In this document: piece by piece, positions 11,925-19,071 of the stretch | How positions within the stretch are numbered: position 1 is the stretch's first letter | Layout of the letters: each line of letters starts with the position of its first letter | The notes under the pieces: model-generated | What the model was told of the DNA's origin: nothing | What the model saw: only the letters and a program-made list of their open reading frames with translations | Databases searched by the model: none | Origin: Candidatus Parcubacteria bacterium | GTDB lineage: Bacteria > Patescibacteriota > Minisyncoccia > SURF-38 | Length of the DNA: 64,000 nucleotides | NCBI GenBank assembly: GCA_003599335.1 | Contig: QZJN01000014.1 | Span: forward strand, 1,432-65,431 | Reading direction: 5' to 3' | Program-made: the position numbers and the translations under genes

Positions 11925-13274
11925 TTGAGGAAACGCCAATATATACTGCCTTCAAAACACATGCCCGCAAATTGGAAAATATTTGCCGGAGGGGCTATGG
12001 TGATAACTCTATTTTTAATTTTTTCTCACGGCGTTTCCGCTCAAACGCTTGGTTGGGTAAAGGAAAGCACTAACGCAGCTCCCTTTGCCGAATTTCTTCA
12101 CGAGATGGTCTACGATGCTGCCCGTCAAGAGGTTATCTTATTTGGAGGCGTATATAACCCATCTTTTAATTTGTTTCCGTTGCTGGACCATACGGTAGCT
12201 TGGAACGGCACAACCTGGGTTTCAAAAACTCCTTCGGTGAGTCCTCCTCCTCGAATAGAGCACGGGATGGCCTACGATGGCGCCCGTCAAGAAGTTATTT
12301 TATTTGGAGGGGGCACTGCTCCAGGCTTGTTTATAAACCGCACCCCACTCAACGACACTTGGATTTGGGATGGGGCAACATGGCAACAAAAATTCCCAAG
12401 TAATAGCCCTACTCCTCGGAGTAATTTTGGCATGGCTTACGATGCAGAGCGCAATGAAACGATTTTGTTTGGAGGACAAGATCCTGCTCCAACTCTAACA
12501 TGCTGTCTCCAAGATGACACTTGGGCCTGGAACGGAACAGATTGGTTCCAAAAGTCTCCAACCTTAAGTCCGTCCAGGCGTTCTCATCACCAGATGGTCT
12601 ACGACTCTGCCAGAAAACAAATTATTCTGTTTGGCGGCATCGATGCCAGTGGCCAACTTCTCAATGATATTTGGGTTTGGGATGGTACAAATTGGGAATT
12701 GAAATCTTCAACCACAAGCCCTTCGTTAAGGACTAATTTTGCAATGACGTTTGATGAGTCCTTGCAGAAAGTCGTTTTGTACGGTGGGCAAGGAACGGCA
12801 GGAAGTTTAGATGATACATGGGTATGGGACGGTAATGATTGGGCTCAACTTTCTGTCTCAAGCAAGCCGCCACCGCAACGGCTCCACGATATGGTTTATG
12901 ATGCTTCACGCAAGGAAATAGTTATGTACGGAGGAGATGGCGCTCTTCGCGAAACTTGGACACTGCCGACCGGTTCTCAAAAACGCCCGGTCATCCTAAT
13001 CCCGGGGATATTAGGAAGTTGGGAGAAAGACGGCGAACTGGCGCTTGATCCAATTTTGCACACCTACGACAATTTATGGGAGGCTCTAAAGTTAGCCGGT
13101 TATGAAGAAGATAAAGACTTATTTGCTTTTCCTTATAATTGGAGATCTTCGAATAACCTTACAAGTTTATCTCTTAAACAAAAGATTGAGGACGTAAAGA
13201 ATATCTGCCAATGTCTAAAAGTGGACATTGTTGGGCATAGTATGGGCGGATTGCTTGCGCGATCATATATTTAG
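11925..13274 (+). CDS. Kelch-repeat beta-propeller protein fused to the N-terminal half of an alpha/beta-hydrolase (lipase) domain; ends at an in-frame TAG
   Basis: Signal/TM N-terminus, then six repeats of the pattern AYD..R.E.ILFGG...NDTW.WDG..W (Kelch). The lipase core GHSMGGLLARSYI follows and is cut immediately by TAG at 13272-13274. Confidence 0.6.
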   Translation: MRKRQYILPSKHMPANWKIFAGGAMVITLFLIFSHGVSAQTLGWVKESTNAAPFAEFLHEMVYDAARQEVILFGGVYNPSFNLFPLLDHTVAWNGTTWVSKTPSVSPPPRIEHGMAYDGARQEVILFGGGTAPGLFINRTPLNDTWIWDGATWQQKFPSNSPTPRSNFGMAYDAERNETILFGGQDPAPTLTCCLQDDTWAWNGTDWFQKSPTLSPSRRSHHQMVYDSARKQIILFGGIDASGQLLNDIWVWDGTNWELKSSTTSPSLRTNFAMTFDESLQKVVLYGGQGTAGSLDDTWVWDGNDWAQLSVSSKPPPQRLHDMVYDASRKEIVMYGGDGALRETWTLPTGSQKRPVILIPGILGSWEKDGELALDPILHTYDNLWEALKLAGYEEDKDLFAFPYNWRSSNNLTSLSLKQKIEDVKNICQCLKVDIVGHSMGGLLARSYI

Positions 13275-13319
13275 GGCGGAGATTATCAAAGTGACGTTGA
13301 AAAGTTAATTTTTCTTGGG

Positions 13320-14576
13320 GTGCCACACCTTGGTTCGCCAAGAGCTTATTTAGCATGGGAAGCTGGAGAGTTTGGAACCGGTCCATTTAATTTTATTAGG
13401 GAAAATCTACTAACCCTAGAAGCTATAAGTGGTGGTTATGGAAGCCTTTTTAATTATGTTAAAAATTTGCCAATTTTATCAATTCAAGAACTCTTGCCAA
13501 TTTATGACTACCTGCGCGAAGATAGTACTCTTCAACTAAGGCAATATCCAAATAATTATCCACGCAATATCTTCCTTGAAATCTTAAACGAGCAATTATT
13601 AGTTGATAGGCTGGATGGTCTAGATGTAACAAATATTATCGCCGATGCTGGGCAACAAAGCACCATTAAGTCATTTAGGATAGTAAATCAACAATTTTTG
13701 GACGGTAAATGGGAGCATGGTTATCCAGAAAATTATGGCGTGCCATTTACAGATCAAGGTTTAGAGGTTGGCCCAGGAGATAATACGGTTCCAGAAGATA
13801 GTAACTCAAACTTTTCTAATGCAGAAGAAATTATTATACAAAGTGACCACGACGGTATAGTTACCGATGCCCAGAAAGCTATTATTAAGGAACTGACTGG
13901 TGTCGAGCCAACGCAGGAAGTGCGACTCAATTTCTTTCAAAAGTATCTTATGATACGAATTTTTTCACCGGCTGATTTTGTGGTTATAGCCCCAGACGGT
14001 AAAAGGCTTGGTAAGGATTTTGCATCAGGTCAAGTTTTAGAAGAGATATCGAGTGCTTTTTACAGCGGATTTAATACAAACGTTGAGTTTGCGGTTATTC
14101 CAGATCCTATTGATGGGCAATATCAGATTGAGTTGCAGGGAACCGGAGATGGCTCTTATAGATTAGTTACAAGTTATATTGATGAGCAAACTGATATTGA
14201 TAATGAATTTTACGGCGCCATCAGCACAATTCAGGAACTTGAATTTATTTTTGATTATAATTCCCAAAATCAAAATCCCGTAAGCGAGTTAGAAATCATT
14301 TACTCGTTGAATGATTTTAGAGATGATATTGAAAAAGCATATCAGTTGGGATGGATAAGTAAAGAAAGCGTAAGGGGTCAGTTCATTCATCAGGCAGATA
14401 GTTTAGATAAGAAATTGGGAATTATAATTGAGCCTCATGCTCGTGCAAACGTTATTGGTAACTCACTTAATGTCATTAAAAACATCGCTAATGCACATCT
14501 TAAGAGCAGTTCAATAAATCAGCTAGCTTATGATATGATAATAAGTAGCATTGATTACTTACTAAATAATTTATGA
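13320..14576 (+). CDS. Continuation of the lipase domain (IFLGVPHLGSP...) plus a C-terminal domain; same frame as 11925-13274
   Basis: The frame is continuous with the upstream ORF (13275 onward reads GGDYQSDVEKLIFLGVPHLGSP). There is no SD before GTG 13320, so this is probably not an independent gene. Confidence 0.45.
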   Translation: MPHLGSPRAYLAWEAGEFGTGPFNFIRENLLTLEAISGGYGSLFNYVKNLPILSIQELLPIYDYLREDSTLQLRQYPNNYPRNIFLEILNEQLLVDRLDGLDVTNIIADAGQQSTIKSFRIVNQQFLDGKWEHGYPENYGVPFTDQGLEVGPGDNTVPEDSNSNFSNAEEIIIQSDHDGIVTDAQKAIIKELTGVEPTQEVRLNFFQKYLMIRIFSPADFVVIAPDGKRLGKDFASGQVLEEISSAFYSGFNTNVEFAVIPDPIDGQYQIELQGTGDGSYRLVTSYIDEQTDIDNEFYGAISTIQELEFIFDYNSQNQNPVSELEIIYSLNDFRDDIEKAYQLGWISKESVRGQFIHQADSLDKKLGIIIEPHARANVIGNSLNVIKNIANAHLKSSSINQLAYDMIISSIDYLLNNL

Positions 14577-16075: not shown

Positions 16076-16084
16076 AACCAAAAA

Positions 16085-16120
16085 CAACATTCCAACATTC
16101 TGCAGAATGTTGGAATGTTG
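16085..16120. repeat. Perfect 36-bp palindrome CAACATTCCAACATTCTGCAGAATGTTGGAATGTTG (PstI-site centre)
   Basis: Read directly from the sequence. It lies between the PKD gene stop and the arsR start. Confidence 0.8.
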
Positions 16121-16144
16121 TGGGGAGTGTGATATACAGGAGGT

Positions 16145-16411
16145 ATGAAAACGGCTAAACAGTTGGAGAGATATTGTAAAGGCGCGGCAAACCACCGGCG
16201 CATCGCGATCTTATCTGTTGTTGAAAAAGAGAGCGGGATTACGCTTGAGGAAATTGCGGAGCGGCTGAGCGCCAACCTTAAAACTATCTCTCAGCATACC
16301 CGATCGTTGGTTCAGGCGGGGCTTTTGAGTAAAAAGTATCAAGGGCGCGCAGTGACTCATCAACTCTCGCCCTACGGAAGGGCTTTTGTCAGATTTCTAA
16401 AATCATTCTAA
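16145..16411 (+). CDS. ArsR/SmtB-family transcriptional regulator
   Basis: 88 aa; ANHRRIAILSVV...ITLEEIAERLSANLKTISQHTRSLVQAGLL is a typical ArsR winged-HTH. Confidence 0.7.
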   Translation: MKTAKQLERYCKGAANHRRIAILSVVEKESGITLEEIAERLSANLKTISQHTRSLVQAGLLSKKYQGRAVTHQLSPYGRAFVRFLKSF

Positions 16412-16434
16412 CATTCTGCAGAATGTTAGAATGA
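16403..16434. repeat. Perfect 32-bp palindrome TCATTCTAACATTCTGCAGAATGTTAGAATGA, overlapping the arsR stop
   Basis: Shares the 18-bp core AACATTCTGCAGAATGTT with 16085-16120. Confidence 0.8.
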
Positions 16435-16540
16435 TGTGGGGGTGGGGTGTGTGGGAGTTGGGGTGTGTGAGGGGATGGGCGCGAAGGTGTGTGGAGGTGT
16501 GAGAGAGTGGGTTGGTGGTGAAGGTTTGATTTTGATTGTG
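16435..16540 (+). repeat. GT-only low-complexity tract with many GGG/GGGG runs (G-quadruplex-prone)
   Basis: About 100 nt composed almost exclusively of G and T, of the form (GGGTGTGTG)n. Confidence 0.7.
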
Positions 16541-16615
16541 CAAAAGGCGTACAATACGGACATTGAAATACTTATTTAAATACGTATTTAACAAATGATT
16601 TATTACTTATAATGT

Positions 16616-16789
16616 ATGCGAAGAAAATTGAAGGAGAAAAATATACGAAAACTCGCCCGGATGGGCAACCGGAGTCTAGGATTAACCTTGCCGGTGGAGA
16701 TGGTTAATAAGCTAGGTTGGCGTGAAAAGCAGAAGGTGCTTTTGAGAATGAAAGGTAAACAGATAATCGTTAAAGATTGGAAGGGATAA
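16616..16789 (+). CDS. AbrB/SpoVT (MazE-like) swapped-hairpin DNA-binding protein, 57 aa
   Basis: Below the ORF-track cutoff. RKLARMGNRSLGLTLPVEMVNKLGWREKQKVLL fits the SpoVT/AbrB domain. The stop lies 3 nt before the next ORF, and a TATAAT box ends 2 nt before the ATG, so the transcript may be leaderless. Confidence 0.5.
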   Translation: MRRKLKEKNIRKLARMGNRSLGLTLPVEMVNKLGWREKQKVLLRMKGKQIIVKDWKG

Positions 16790-16792
16790 CTC

Positions 16793-17485
16793 ATGATTAC
16801 AAAAATCAAAAAATCTAATGACGCGACAGCTTATCTAAAAACTTCTGTTAATAAAATATTAAATTATTTACGGAAGATAGTTAGTAATAAAAAATTTAAT
16901 TATAGAACTTTCGGCACTAGTATAGAAGAACATCTTACCGATATTTTGGTTAAGTTATTTACGGAGGGTGGTTTTATAGAAAATAATAAAGATTACGTTG
17001 TTGCGCTCAATAAAAATTATTTCCCAGATTTTGAATTAAAAACCACGCCTCCACTTGCTATTGAGTTTAAATCTGGTAATAAGAGTCAGTATAGAAAGGA
17101 GAAGTGGGTTGTTGTTAAAAACAGCGAGAACGATATGGGAACATTAAATGAATGGCCACAAAAAATTAAGAAATTTGGCGGGGATAACATTTATTATATT
17201 TTCGTTATTTATAATTTTAATGATCAAACTGAAGAGGTTTTAAATGTTGAAATAGCTCCATTCTACCAATTTATAGGATTGAATAAGGGAAAGGTGCTTA
17301 AATATAGAGAGAAAGATGGCAACTTGAGGCCAAAAGATTTTGAATCTAATTCTCCTATAAAGACCTTAAAACAATTTGAAGATTTATTGAATAAAACTGT
17401 AATTTATAGATCTAAACGAGTAATCAAAAAACACCGTTCGATTATTAAAAAAGTTGCTCAAACTTCTAAAAAAGAGTTGGGCTAA
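16793..17485 (+). CDS. Putative PD-(D/E)xK nuclease (candidate Type II restriction endonuclease)
   Basis: 230 aa. Motif E(EEHLTD)...FPD-x12-EFK fits a PD-(D/E)xK catalytic core. The gene is convergent with, and overlaps by 20 nt, the DNA methyltransferase gene. Confidence 0.45.
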   Translation: MITKIKKSNDATAYLKTSVNKILNYLRKIVSNKKFNYRTFGTSIEEHLTDILVKLFTEGGFIENNKDYVVALNKNYFPDFELKTTPPLAIEFKSGNKSQYRKEKWVVVKNSENDMGTLNEWPQKIKKFGGDNIYYIFVIYNFNDQTEEVLNVEIAPFYQFIGLNKGKVLKYREKDGNLRPKDFESNSPIKTLKQFEDLLNKTVIYRSKRVIKKHRSIIKKVAQTSKKELG

Positions 17486-19028
17486 CTAATTTTTTATTTT
17501 GTTTTTTATTGTAGTTGAATTTAGGGTTGTCTATAGGATAAATGCCCTCATCTTCGGATATAGTTAAGTTCCTTAAATACTTTGAGGCAGTTTCGGGAGT
17601 ATTGCCGTTATATTTATAACCATTACTTGAACGATAATTTACTTTATCAAGTTTATTTGCGACGATTTTTTTATATTTTGGATCTATATCAATACCAATA
17701 TAATTTCGTCCGAGGCGTTTTGCGGCAAGCGCAGTTGTCCCTGCTCCAATGAATGGATCTAACACTACATCCCTTTCATCTGTAGTCATGAGTATCAATC
17801 GTTCCAATAAAGGTTCTGGGAGTTGGCATGGATGAGCGTCTCTCCGAGCGTTATGCCGAATGCGGTGTATATCTGCCCACACATCGCTTAAAAGTGTTCC
17901 ATGAGGGTGTATTTGGTTTTTCTTCCCCCCATAATCTTTAATCATTTCTCCGCAGATCCTGCATTTTTTGTGAGGTGATCTTAATTCATGAAATTTAAAT
18001 CCTTTCTGAGTTTTTGTATAAAATAAGATGCCATAATGTGCGGGTAATAGCGTTTTTCCAAGAGGCGTGCTCATTGAATCCCAAGCAATCCAGTGTTTAA
18101 ACACAGCAATTTTGTTAAGATGGTTAGCATAGTAGGTCAACCATTTTGGTATATTATGAATAAAGATTGAGCCTGTTGGTTTAGTTATTCTAACCATTTC
18201 GGTTAGCCACAACTCACACCATTTTATATAATCATCAGTTGTTTTTTTGTCTTTATAATTTCCATACTTTTTATTTAAGTTGAATGGCGGGTCTGCAAAT
18301 GTCATATCCACCGAGTTATCAGGGATCTTTTTCATTTCACTAATAGAATCTCCGCACAGGATTTCGTTCAGAGGAAGTTTTTTGTATTGTTTAATATCGT
18401 GTTTAATTTCTGGCAAAATGATAGGAGTTGTAAATTCATCTCGGATAACATCAATGACTATCCCTTGGATAGAAATATCCTTATCTTTTTTTATGATGAT
18501 TGGCTCCATGCTTTTGTTTGCCGGTTGTAATCTGATATGGCCGCGCTCTTTATAGAATTTCTTTAGGGTTGCTTCCTGATTGTCTATGAGGGCGACAACT
18601 TTTTGGCCGTTTTCGGCTGTGGCTTGATGTTTTACTAAAATAATATCTCCATCATTAATATTTTCATCAACCATGCTATTGCCAATCACTTTTAAAGCGT
18701 AAATCTCTCCGGAAGAGGGGAGTTTGTTTTTTGGCACGGCAATAGTTTCTTTTTCTTGAACCGCCTCTATGGGTTCGCCAGCCGCGATAGTGCCAAGGAG
18801 TGGAATTTTAACCATCGACTCCGTTTCAGTAATATCTATTGCCCTGTGTTGATTCCAGCCTCGTTTTAAATATCCCTTTGCTTGTAGCTTTGATATATGT
18901 TCATGAATATTTGAGGGGGAGGATAAACCGAAGTGGTCGGCTATCTCTTCAAGAGAGGGAGCGTACTGGTGCTTTTTTATGTATTTTTGGACGTAGTCCA
19001 AAACTTGTTTCTGACGTTTGGTAAGCAT
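17466..19028 (-). CDS. LexA-like repressor (HTH + S24 autopeptidase) fused to a beta-class DNA methyltransferase (N6A/N4C)
   Basis: The N-terminus MLTKRQKQVLDYV...LEEIADHFGLSSPSNIHEHISKLQAKGYL matches the LexA DNA-binding domain. The AAGEP Ala-Gly cleavage site, GNSM Ser and ATLKKF Lys define an intact S24 domain. After a linker come the MTase motifs IV (DMTFADPPFN) and I (VVLDPFIGAGTTALAA) in beta-class order. The track start at 19049 is GTG; ATG 19028 matches the LexA N-terminus. Confidence 0.65.
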   Translation of the reverse strand: MLTKRQKQVLDYVQKYIKKHQYAPSLEEIADHFGLSSPSNIHEHISKLQAKGYLKRGWNQHRAIDITETESMVKIPLLGTIAAGEPIEAVQEKETIAVPKNKLPSSGEIYALKVIGNSMVDENINDGDIILVKHQATAENGQKVVALIDNQEATLKKFYKERGHIRLQPANKSMEPIIIKKDKDISIQGIVIDVIRDEFTTPIILPEIKHDIKQYKKLPLNEILCGDSISEMKKIPDNSVDMTFADPPFNLNKKYGNYKDKKTTDDYIKWCELWLTEMVRITKPTGSIFIHNIPKWLTYYANHLNKIAVFKHWIAWDSMSTPLGKTLLPAHYGILFYTKTQKGFKFHELRSPHKKCRICGEMIKDYGGKKNQIHPHGTLLSDVWADIHRIRHNARRDAHPCQLPEPLLERLILMTTDERDVVLDPFIGAGTTALAAKRLGRNYIGIDIDPKYKKIVANKLDKVNYRSSNGYKYNGNTPETASKYLRNLTISEDEGIYPIDNPKFNYNKKQNKKLVSPTLF

Positions 19029-19037
19029 GCTTTTATT

Positions 19038-19071
19038 ATAACTTAACACCCGAAAGAAAACCGAAAGTTAT
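19038..19071. promoter_or_regulatory. Candidate operator: inverted repeat ATAACTT-N20-AAGTTAT enclosing direct repeats CCGAAAG x2, overlapping the -10 of the lexA-MTase gene
   Basis: Read from the sequence immediately upstream of ATG 19028 on the minus strand. A TATAAT box (reverse complement) lies ~6 nt before the ATG. Confidence 0.35.

Follow-up and report, generated by a model that had tools for sequence, protein, structure and literature searches.

What do two near-identical perfect palindromes do on either side of a small regulator gene? The question is raised by a 64-kb stretch of a Candidatus Parcubacteria contig (QZJN01000014.1; the whole stretch is called the window here), in which the gene of an 88-aa ArsR/SmtB-like winged-helix protein begins shortly after one palindrome and ends inside another. 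Here, we describe the palindromes, their occurrence in public genomes, and their relation to the protein. We consider it probable, at roughly 0.6, that they are resident copies of a repeat family for which the protein is the presumed binder, with an upstream copy that serves autoregulation and dispersed copies that were inserted elsewhere. The pairing is REP/RAYT-like, its partner being a regulator without a catalytic domain. See Table 1 for the coordinates of the features.

A palindrome family around the regulator gene

Both palindromes of the window are perfect, as the first-pass annotation of this DNA had reported, and its coordinates for them (16085-16120, 36 bp, and 16403-16434, 32 bp) fall one base short on each side. 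Sequence reading and an inverted-repeat scan also confirm the common core, the near-identity of the two copies, the CTGCAG center, and the overlap of the second copy with the arsR stop codon. The upstream palindrome begins 9 nt after the stop codon of a PKD-domain gene (371 aa) and contains, at 16086-16119, the 34-bp family unit AACATTCC-AACATTCTGCAGAATGTT-GGAATGTT. The left arm of the downstream palindrome codes for the final residues K-S-F of the regulator and its TAA stop (16409-16411). Common to both is the 18-mer AACATTCTGCAGAATGTT, found at 16094-16111 and 16410-16427. With up to three mismatches allowed, these are the only two matches to the 18-mer in 64 kb, where 0.02 would be expected by chance, and a relaxed scan of the window with the 34-mer gave the same two copies and none further.

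We scanned a species-representative genome collection for the exact 18-mer in 8-kb stretches; the counts given here are of the matches listed. The exact 18-mer is present in at least 120 such stretches of public genomes. Among 137 listed matches, 127 have the full 34-bp unit, (A/T)ACATTC(C/T)-AACATTCTGCAGAATGTT-(G/A)GAATGT(T/A), and the other 10 correspond to the chance expectation. The unit is built from four 8-bp ACATTC units, two direct and two inverted, and members of the family are 34-42 bp long, with A-run/T-run extensions on about one-third of the sites. The listed hosts are overwhelmingly Patescibacteria (Saccharibacteria and many Paceibacterota lineages), and Kiritimatiellia, Verrucomicrobiota, and Lentisphaerae are also represented. 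A locus binned as Pacearchaeota (DPANN; L084, JAWAZI010000013.1) has the regulator gene, a palindrome copy, and an adjoining 1211-aa open reading frame (ORF), and could be a case of mis-binning or of cross-domain transfer.

Variant copies have TGCA, TATA, TTAA, TCAA, or TTGA as their central 4 nt, and the part that stays constant across variants is ACATTC-N4-GAATGT together with the outer units. Because the central four bases vary among copies, the PstI site (CTGCAG) at the center of the window's palindromes is incidental. A link to restriction-modification through this site was ruled out, as the center varies between genomes and the CTGCAG count of the window is unremarkable (5 found versus 7.65 expected, neither depleted nor enriched).

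For the bracketing of the gene, we picked 80 metagenome loci by protein similarity alone and scored 79 homologous genes. An upstream palindrome is present at 77 of the 79, with its center 30-94 nt before the ATG (mostly 42-48 nt), and a downstream palindrome at 76 of the 79, with its center ~8 nt past the stop codon in nearly all. The TAA stop nearly always falls within the left arm of the downstream copy, at a fixed position, and variant features are common to both copies of a genome. The palindrome-gene-palindrome unit suspected from the window alone is therefore a near-universal module. Center-to-center distances between the two copies range from 307 to 325 bp with no strict phase, and helical phasing of the copies was rejected. 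We found no account of the motif, or of a pairing of ArsR-like proteins with palindromes in Patescibacteria, in the searchable full-text literature, and Rfam contains no matching family, only sub-threshold matches to generic hairpins.

The protein encoded between the palindromes is a winged helix-turn-helix only, and neither Pfam nor the structure model shows a catalytic domain. Pfam assigns HTH_24 (score 32.6, cut-off 21.9) and HTH_5 (23.0, cut-off 22), with MarR and HTH_20 also matching; with HTH_metalloreg, the ArsR/SmtB model of NCBIfam, the score of 42.3 falls short of the cut-off (55). Homologs fall into ~900 clusters at 70-80% identity and are nearly always 88 residues long, and the clusters that have names bear ArsR, MarR, or winged-helix annotations and come from Parcubacteria, Sungbacteria, Giovannonibacteria, and Patescibacteria. 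An AlphaFold model (pLDDT 87), built from an alignment of database proteins, has the ArsR/SmtB topology α1-α2-α3-αR-β1-β2-α5, with helices at residues 4-11, 14-27, 34-41, 45-57, and, as the last element, 76-87, and with a beta hairpin at 61-74. The best matches in the Protein Data Bank are 3f6v (ArsR family), HlyU, SmtB, CadC, and CzrA, and the archaeal centromere binder AspA ranked lower. The family alignment has no conserved Cys, and a His/Asp/Glu cluster in α5 was not apparent by eye among the conserved columns. Neither the α3 Cys motif nor the α5 site that marks the metal sensors of the ArsR/SmtB family was thus apparent in this alignment.

The GC and GC3 contents of the regulator gene track those of the host (r = 0.82 and 0.80, respectively, for hosts of 28-58% GC), and the palindrome sequence is constant over the same range. 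Therefore, we infer long residence in these genomes and purifying selection on the site. We rejected a recent horizontal spread of this cassette, as the GC content of the gene is adapted to each host. Synteny around the regulator gene is not conserved. Neither the palindrome nor homologs of the protein were found in 2.9 million viral contigs or in plasmids, and a phage or plasmid origin was rejected for this reason.

The upstream copy and the regulator's promoter

The right arm of the upstream palindrome contains a -35-like hexamer, and an extended -10 element follows between the palindrome and the gene. Among 71 distinct loci, 52 have TAnnnT ending 4-10 nt before the start codon (22% in shuffles), and 38 have the TGn extension of the -10 (1.5% in shuffles). 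Between the -10 and the start codon lie 6-9 nt, most commonly 6; TTGGAA is separated from the -10 by 17 nt in 30 loci and by 18 nt in 5. By position, the palindrome is placed as an autoregulatory operator would be, overlapping the regulator's own promoter at a conserved distance in most of the 71 loci. Elsewhere, this promoter architecture is found at just 4 of 163 other arms, and at 3 of the 57 arms that face a gene's 5' end.

Sigma-70 geometry puts the transcription start shortly 3' of the -10. The predicted start coincides with the A of the ATG or adjoins it, and therefore the mRNA is predicted to be leaderless. Protein bound on the upstream palindrome would cover about -19 to -52, which makes autorepression the natural reading, and the regulator gene is, judging from these sequences, probably autorepressed through its upstream copy. 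Most likely, the 88-aa protein binds the palindromic repeat, and it probably does so as two dimers; two dimers per operator are known in the ArsR/SmtB family. Binding at the upstream copy, over the -35 box, would shut off the leaderless transcript, as in classic autorepression. The earlier reading of the palindromes as operator sites is supported for the upstream copy, which overlaps the -35 of a promoter conserved in ~70 unrelated loci and whose center co-varies with the recognition helix of the protein.

This co-variation is seen when the sites are sorted by recognition helix. With the helix SQHT(R/K)SLV, the center is TGCA in all but ~4 of ~130 sites. With HTRRLV, represented by 8 proteins and 16 sites, the centers are TTGA, TCAA, TTAA, or TATA, and none is TGCA. 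The comparison is suggestive of recognition-helix changes that track changes of the palindrome center.

The downstream copy, locked on the stop codon, would most likely be a second bound site that closes the unit, either as a roadblock or as a loop partner. The TGTTAGAAT box in its right arm fits the extended -10 pattern TGnTAnnnT and is found at the same position in 58 of 88 downstream copies; in locus L145, TGCTAGAAT is the predicted -10 of the regulator gene's own promoter. The box could be a putative outward-facing promoter element, and in some genomes the downstream copy may act as an outward promoter.

Table 1. Features of the regulator gene, its palindromes, and the adjoining tract (window positions)
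Feature	Position	Strand	Remarks
Upstream palindrome	16084..16121	.	38 bp, perfect, center CTGCAG (sequence reading and inverted-repeat scan)
TTGGAA, -35-like hexamer	16110..16115	+	In right arm of upstream palindrome
Extended -10, TG-A-TATACA	16130..16138	+	TG at 16130-16131, TATACA at 16133-16138; 17 nt past TTGGAA, 6 nt before ATG (16145)
Regulator gene, 88-aa ArsR/SmtB-like winged-helix protein (P0001)	16145..16411	+	Annotated ArsR family, Candidatus Parcubacteria
Downstream palindrome	16402..16435	.	34 bp, perfect, center CTGCAG, ATCATTCT-AACATTCTGCAGAATGTT-AGAATGAT
TGTTAGAAT box	16424..16432	+	Downstream palindrome, right arm; mirrored on - strand at 16405-16413
G/T-rich, C-depleted tract	16436..16535	+	G57 T28 A13 C2, 85% G+T

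Dispersed copies and competing explanations

Among the matches listed, metagenome-assembled genomes (MAGs) have ~2-5 exact dispersed copies each, contigs of 90-600 kb usually have one or two site-bearing 8-kb stretches, and several MAGs have two to four site-carrying contigs each. Extra copies cluster by the regulator gene: their density is 1.56 per 10 kb up to 1 kb away from it and drops to 0.11 per 10 kb at a distance of 4-6 kb. Intergenic sites lie between tandem genes in 51 cases, between convergent genes in 25, and between divergent genes in 10, half of the last involving the regulator gene. In many convergent pairs, the gap is little longer than the palindrome itself. The genes that end at sites are housekeeping genes, GatB, HisRS, TrmD, DnaJ, and RNase Y among them, and the genes that start beside sites have no common function. 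For REPs, too, positions downstream of genes have been reported to predominate, in the gaps of unidirectional as well as convergent ORFs, and some copies are intragenic (PMC3733652). The distribution is like that of REPs and of Rickettsia palindromic elements (RPEs); therefore, we infer that the dispersed copies were inserted. The first-pass annotation had named a generic REP-like repeat unrelated to the gene as the outcome that would speak against its proposal. A widespread REP-like repeat is what the motif is, and it is not unrelated to the gene. In one MAG (CAZVCF01), the palindrome forms the center of a ~150-bp fold-back repeat on at least four contigs (L041:6872, L063:2088, L072:2003, and L121:3678).

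Copies are also found inside genes. We scanned 10 site-bearing ORFs. Eight of them encode real proteins in which the site falls within a domain or between domains: class II FBA, PGK, TsaD, an FAD oxidase, a GT4 glycosyltransferase, an amidohydrolase, a Mur ligase, and a staphylococcal-type nuclease. In alignments with solved structures, the extra residues fall exactly at the palindrome. In the PGK of a Brennerbacteria genome (L021), RPQHSNILQNVGMLW is a clean 15-aa (45-nt) insert relative to the six closest homologs, which are 70-75% identical. The reading frame is shared by 13 of the 14 intragenic copies and gives xHSNILQNVGMx. In its CC/GG form, the palindrome is free of stop codons in all frames, and we calculated a probability of ~2e-5 for 13 of 14 copies in the same frame. 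Carriers of the peptide are L021:2559-3674 (- strand), L071:3163-4038 (+ strand), and 11 other loci, with PGK, class II FBA, and TsaD among the enzymes. These are in-frame insertions in unrelated genes that add a conserved peptide, as is characteristic of RPE-like elements. Therefore, the palindrome has been inserted at new places, as RPEs were: just behind genes, in the gaps of convergent pairs, and, in frame, within housekeeping genes.

Several observations weigh against an inserted repeat family with an autoregulatory binder. In the window, GGAGGT fills the 6-nt gap from the -10 to the ATG, and translation here may be Shine-Dalgarno-led from a longer transcript. The co-variation of recognition helix and palindrome center comes from one or two clades only. 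Target-site duplications were not found, and 2-4 nt direct repeats are not enriched at element ends, so the palindromes do not show the combination of terminal inverted repeats and target-site duplication that defines miniature inverted-repeat transposable elements. A GTAG-type tag was not found either, with GT[AG]G after just 18 of the 310 arms. Nor does any transposase or recombinase family recur in the neighborhood of the regulator gene. With no duplication, tag, or recurring transposase, mobility is therefore seen through its products only. The copy number per genome is low, unlike that of classical REPs. Furthermore, dyad symmetry is retained at positions of the palindrome that are free to vary, for which a symmetric protein dimer does not account.

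We measured this symmetry over 155 sites, with shuffles giving the expected values. Position 10 from the center is complementary in 142 sites (82 expected) and position 18 in 83 (47.5 expected); positions 9, 15-17, and 19 are above expectation too, and there is no signal past about position 20. The remaining explanations require action at the DNA level, which could be pairing in a cruciform or replication hairpin, or templated correction of quasi-palindromes, as is known from E. coli genetics. As DNA hairpins, the two palindromes of the window have energies of -17.6 and -13.1 kcal/mol, which indicates cruciform potential only. One could go further and propose that copying of the palindrome depends on the 88-aa protein, which would recruit host replication or repair at the hairpin or cruciform. 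Such copying would be transposition-like without a transposase, and repeat and protein, its sole dedicated partner, would form a long-lived replicator-host pair in Patescibacteria and Verrucomicrobia-type (PVC) bacteria. We find this extension rather doubtful.

Alternatively, the palindrome could be a selfish element copied by an unrelated enzyme, and the ArsR-like protein a host factor that neutralizes the copies, by silencing their outward boxes or by preventing cruciform or hairpin damage, and does not propagate them. A protein without a catalytic domain would suit such a role, as would the outward -35-like and extended -10-like boxes in the arms and the PIF1-like helicase that lies beside the cassette in ~10 of ~110 loci. 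HlyU, a protein of the same fold family, attenuates a DNA cruciform in Vibrio parahaemolyticus (PMC10325908). However, no candidate mobilizing enzyme is seen near the gene, a dedicated and highly conserved guardian seems costly at such low copy numbers, and it would be left unexplained why the downstream copy is placed so strictly on the stop codon. We judge this explanation unlikely.

The kept symmetry could also reflect RNA, if the palindromes act mainly in transcripts, as bidirectional terminators or 3'-end stabilizers and the protein gene merely uses them. Their RNA hairpins are strong (-26.9 and -23.5 kcal/mol in the window, z ~ -6), sites lie close to gene 3' ends and in convergent gaps, and the A-run/T-run extensions, like the TTTTTGGTTTT that follows the upstream copy on the minus strand, would fit as well. 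However, T-tracts are not enriched on the gene-3'-end side of the palindromes (42% versus 31%, p = 0.32), and no strand bias of G:T over A:C mismatches, our test for selection at the RNA level, was seen. RNA is therefore a weak explanation of the symmetry. The central 2 nt, which are unable to pair in a hairpin, are self-complementary in 150 of the 155 sites. At least 12 loci have the next gene starting within 25 nt of the downstream copy, so that transcription there has to run through the copy or begin within it. Structure alone would not account for an identical sequence across phyla or for co-variation with the protein, and a matching Rfam family is lacking. The stem has 6 GC pairs of 17, and the GC-rich stem with a U-tract at a gene end that is typical of intrinsic terminators was not found in the palindromes; the canonical terminators of the window differ from them. 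The first-pass view that they are atypical as terminators thus holds, and a role in RNA appears quite improbable.

Similarly, the palindromes could be crossover points that shuffle the regulator and accessory genes, in the manner of attC, Xer pdif, or PeSL sites. The regulator gene has no conserved neighbors, and adjoining site-gene-site arrays enclose accessory-type genes; the genes between two copies often code for PIF1, Fic/DOC, RhuM, WYL, a restriction-endonuclease-like protein, or a staphylococcal-type nuclease. The PeSL cassettes of T4-type phages, composed of a promoter and a stem-loop, do shuffle genes (PMC2839356). However, neither an integrase nor an Xer-type gene is linked, extrahelical bases of the attC type are missing from the perfect palindromes, near-identical locus pairs show neither inversion nor a presence/absence difference, and cassette exchange does not explain single intragenic copies. 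We regard recombination sites as an improbable explanation.

A plain local regulon, in which the palindrome is the operator of an ArsR-like repressor, the other copies regulate genes, and nothing is mobile, is very improbable and, given the intragenic and convergent copies, largely refuted: the promoter overlaps the upstream copy, the whole operator-promoter cassette is duplicated at a few neighboring genes (e.g., L154 and L190), and extra copies are concentrated near the regulator gene, but the promoter architecture is confined to the few other arms counted above, the 25 sites that fill convergent gaps leave no room for a promoter, copies lie in frame inside PGK, FBA, and TsaD, and the neighboring genes share no function. 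A conserved regulon was likewise ruled out by the heterogeneity of the neighboring genes, and A-type arms (TAGAAT) show no significant preference for facing gene starts (odds ratio 1.6, p = 0.22). We also rejected a replication terminus of the RTP or Tus-Ter type, as the sites are symmetric, the flanking genes are mostly co-directional, and there is no GC-skew turn at 16 kb.

Window neighbors and known systems

The tract that follows the downstream copy had been described as an extraordinary GT-only tract. It is G/T-rich and nearly C-free, and not strictly GT-only (Table 1), and a G-quadruplex-type pattern is present in it along with a loose tandem repeat of 16 nt. GTGGGG directly follows both copies in the window, and the promoter spacer in relatives is GYGGGRAKTRTG-like. 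Family-wide, the outward-reading strand is G-rich and C-poor, with a GC skew of +0.37 in the first 20 nt that decays over ~80 nt; the 80 nt downstream of the cassette have a skew of +0.27 versus -0.14 upstream (p = 1e-10). By sequence, the tract of the window looks like an extreme case of this general G-rich flank, a slippage-expanded and degenerate copy of the promoter spacer.

At 16562-16601, ATTTAAATACGT x2.5 forms an AT-rich tandem repeat, which overlaps an imperfect palindrome just upstream of an AbrB-like gene and may be that gene's own operator. The region at 16616-17485 (+ strand) holds this AbrB/MazE-like gene (57 aa) followed by a 230-aa ORF, which has no match in Pfam, NCBIfam, or PADLOC. 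This ORF and a convergent methylase gene overlap by 20 nt at their 3' ends, and the ORF could encode the restriction-enzyme partner of the methylase. The methylase gene, at 17466-19049 (- strand), codes for a 527-aa fusion of a complete LexA (DNA-binding domain and S24 self-cleaving peptidase) to an N6/N4 DNA methyltransferase. The same fusion is shared by over 100 protein clusters of Patescibacteria (65-80% identity); on this contig, NCBI annotates the methylase part only (347 aa), and JGI a 520-aa fusion. Further upstream, a lipase-like ORF of ~880 aa with a GHSMGG motif (11925-14576, + strand) has a single in-frame TAG at 13272-13274, past which the frame continues cleanly. Pseudogenization by a nonsense mutation, stop-codon read-through, or a sequencing error could explain the TAG.

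In other genomes, a PIF1/RecD-like helicase lies within a few genes of the cassette at ~8 times the chance frequency by a rough estimate (L003, L006, L033, L091, L095, L116, L118, L139, L150, and L190). In three loci, the helicase gene itself is enclosed by two palindrome copies.

Among known systems, REP/REPIN-RAYT (PMC3116915, PMC3337134, PMC3733652, and bioRxiv 10.1101/2021.07.10.451892) resembles the present pair in its 20-40 bp palindromic repeats in the same gene contexts, in a single-copy partner gene between two repeat copies (here at 77/79 and 76/79 genes), and in a vertically inherited partner gene alongside which the repeat persists. Unlike RAYT, which is a Y1 (HUH) transposase, the partner here is an 88-aa ArsR-like protein. 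The palindromes have no GTAG or CGTC tag and are perfect and AT-rich. They are present in few copies per genome (two in the 64-kb window), whereas REPs number tens to hundreds, and they keep one sequence across phyla, whereas REPs are species-specific. Because of the missing transposase, the missing tag, and the low copy number, the family does not belong to REP/RAYT. RPEs (PMC10969869) share in-frame insertion in unrelated metabolic genes with the addition of a conserved peptide. However, they are ~150 bp long, restricted to Rickettsia, and without a dedicated flanked gene, compared with an insert of 34-45 nt here.

SmtB, CzrA, CadC, and HlyU have the same fold as the 88-aa protein and an inverted-repeat target over their own promoter, with half-sites one helical turn apart. 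Unlike these ArsR/SmtB repressors, the protein here has no apparent metal- or thiol-sensing residues, its mRNA is predicted to be leaderless, a second site lies on the stop codon, and the operator is invariant across phyla and is also an inserted repeat. HlyU, which is among the top sequence and structure matches, is likewise an ArsR-like winged helix at a palindromic locus able to form a cruciform, but it has a single regulatory locus, activates a virulence gene, and has neither a repeat family nor a bracketed gene of its own. The PeSL repeats of T4-type phages are also short, combine a promoter with a stem-loop, flank non-essential genes, and mark variable regions; however, they are phage-borne and have no dedicated binding protein, and no copy of the present family was found in viral contigs. 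Integron attC sites have a linked intI and are imperfect, with extrahelical bases, in contrast to the perfect palindromes described here, near which no recombinase recurs.

Regulation and genome dynamics in Patescibacteria are almost unexplored, and most of these bacteria cannot grow alone. The 88-aa protein and the 34-bp site form a candidate protein-DNA pair, with a site that is unchanged over hosts of 28-58% GC and a predicted leaderless, autoregulatory promoter. Palindrome insertion of the REP-like and RPE-like kind takes place in their reduced genomes, including in frame into glycolytic enzymes. The motif accounts for spurious or extended ORF calls and for odd 10-15-aa inserts in the proteins of these lineages, and it is a compact marker for them in metagenomes. 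If the protein is required for maintaining or spreading the repeat, the known repeat-protein partnerships would extend beyond tyrosine transposases.

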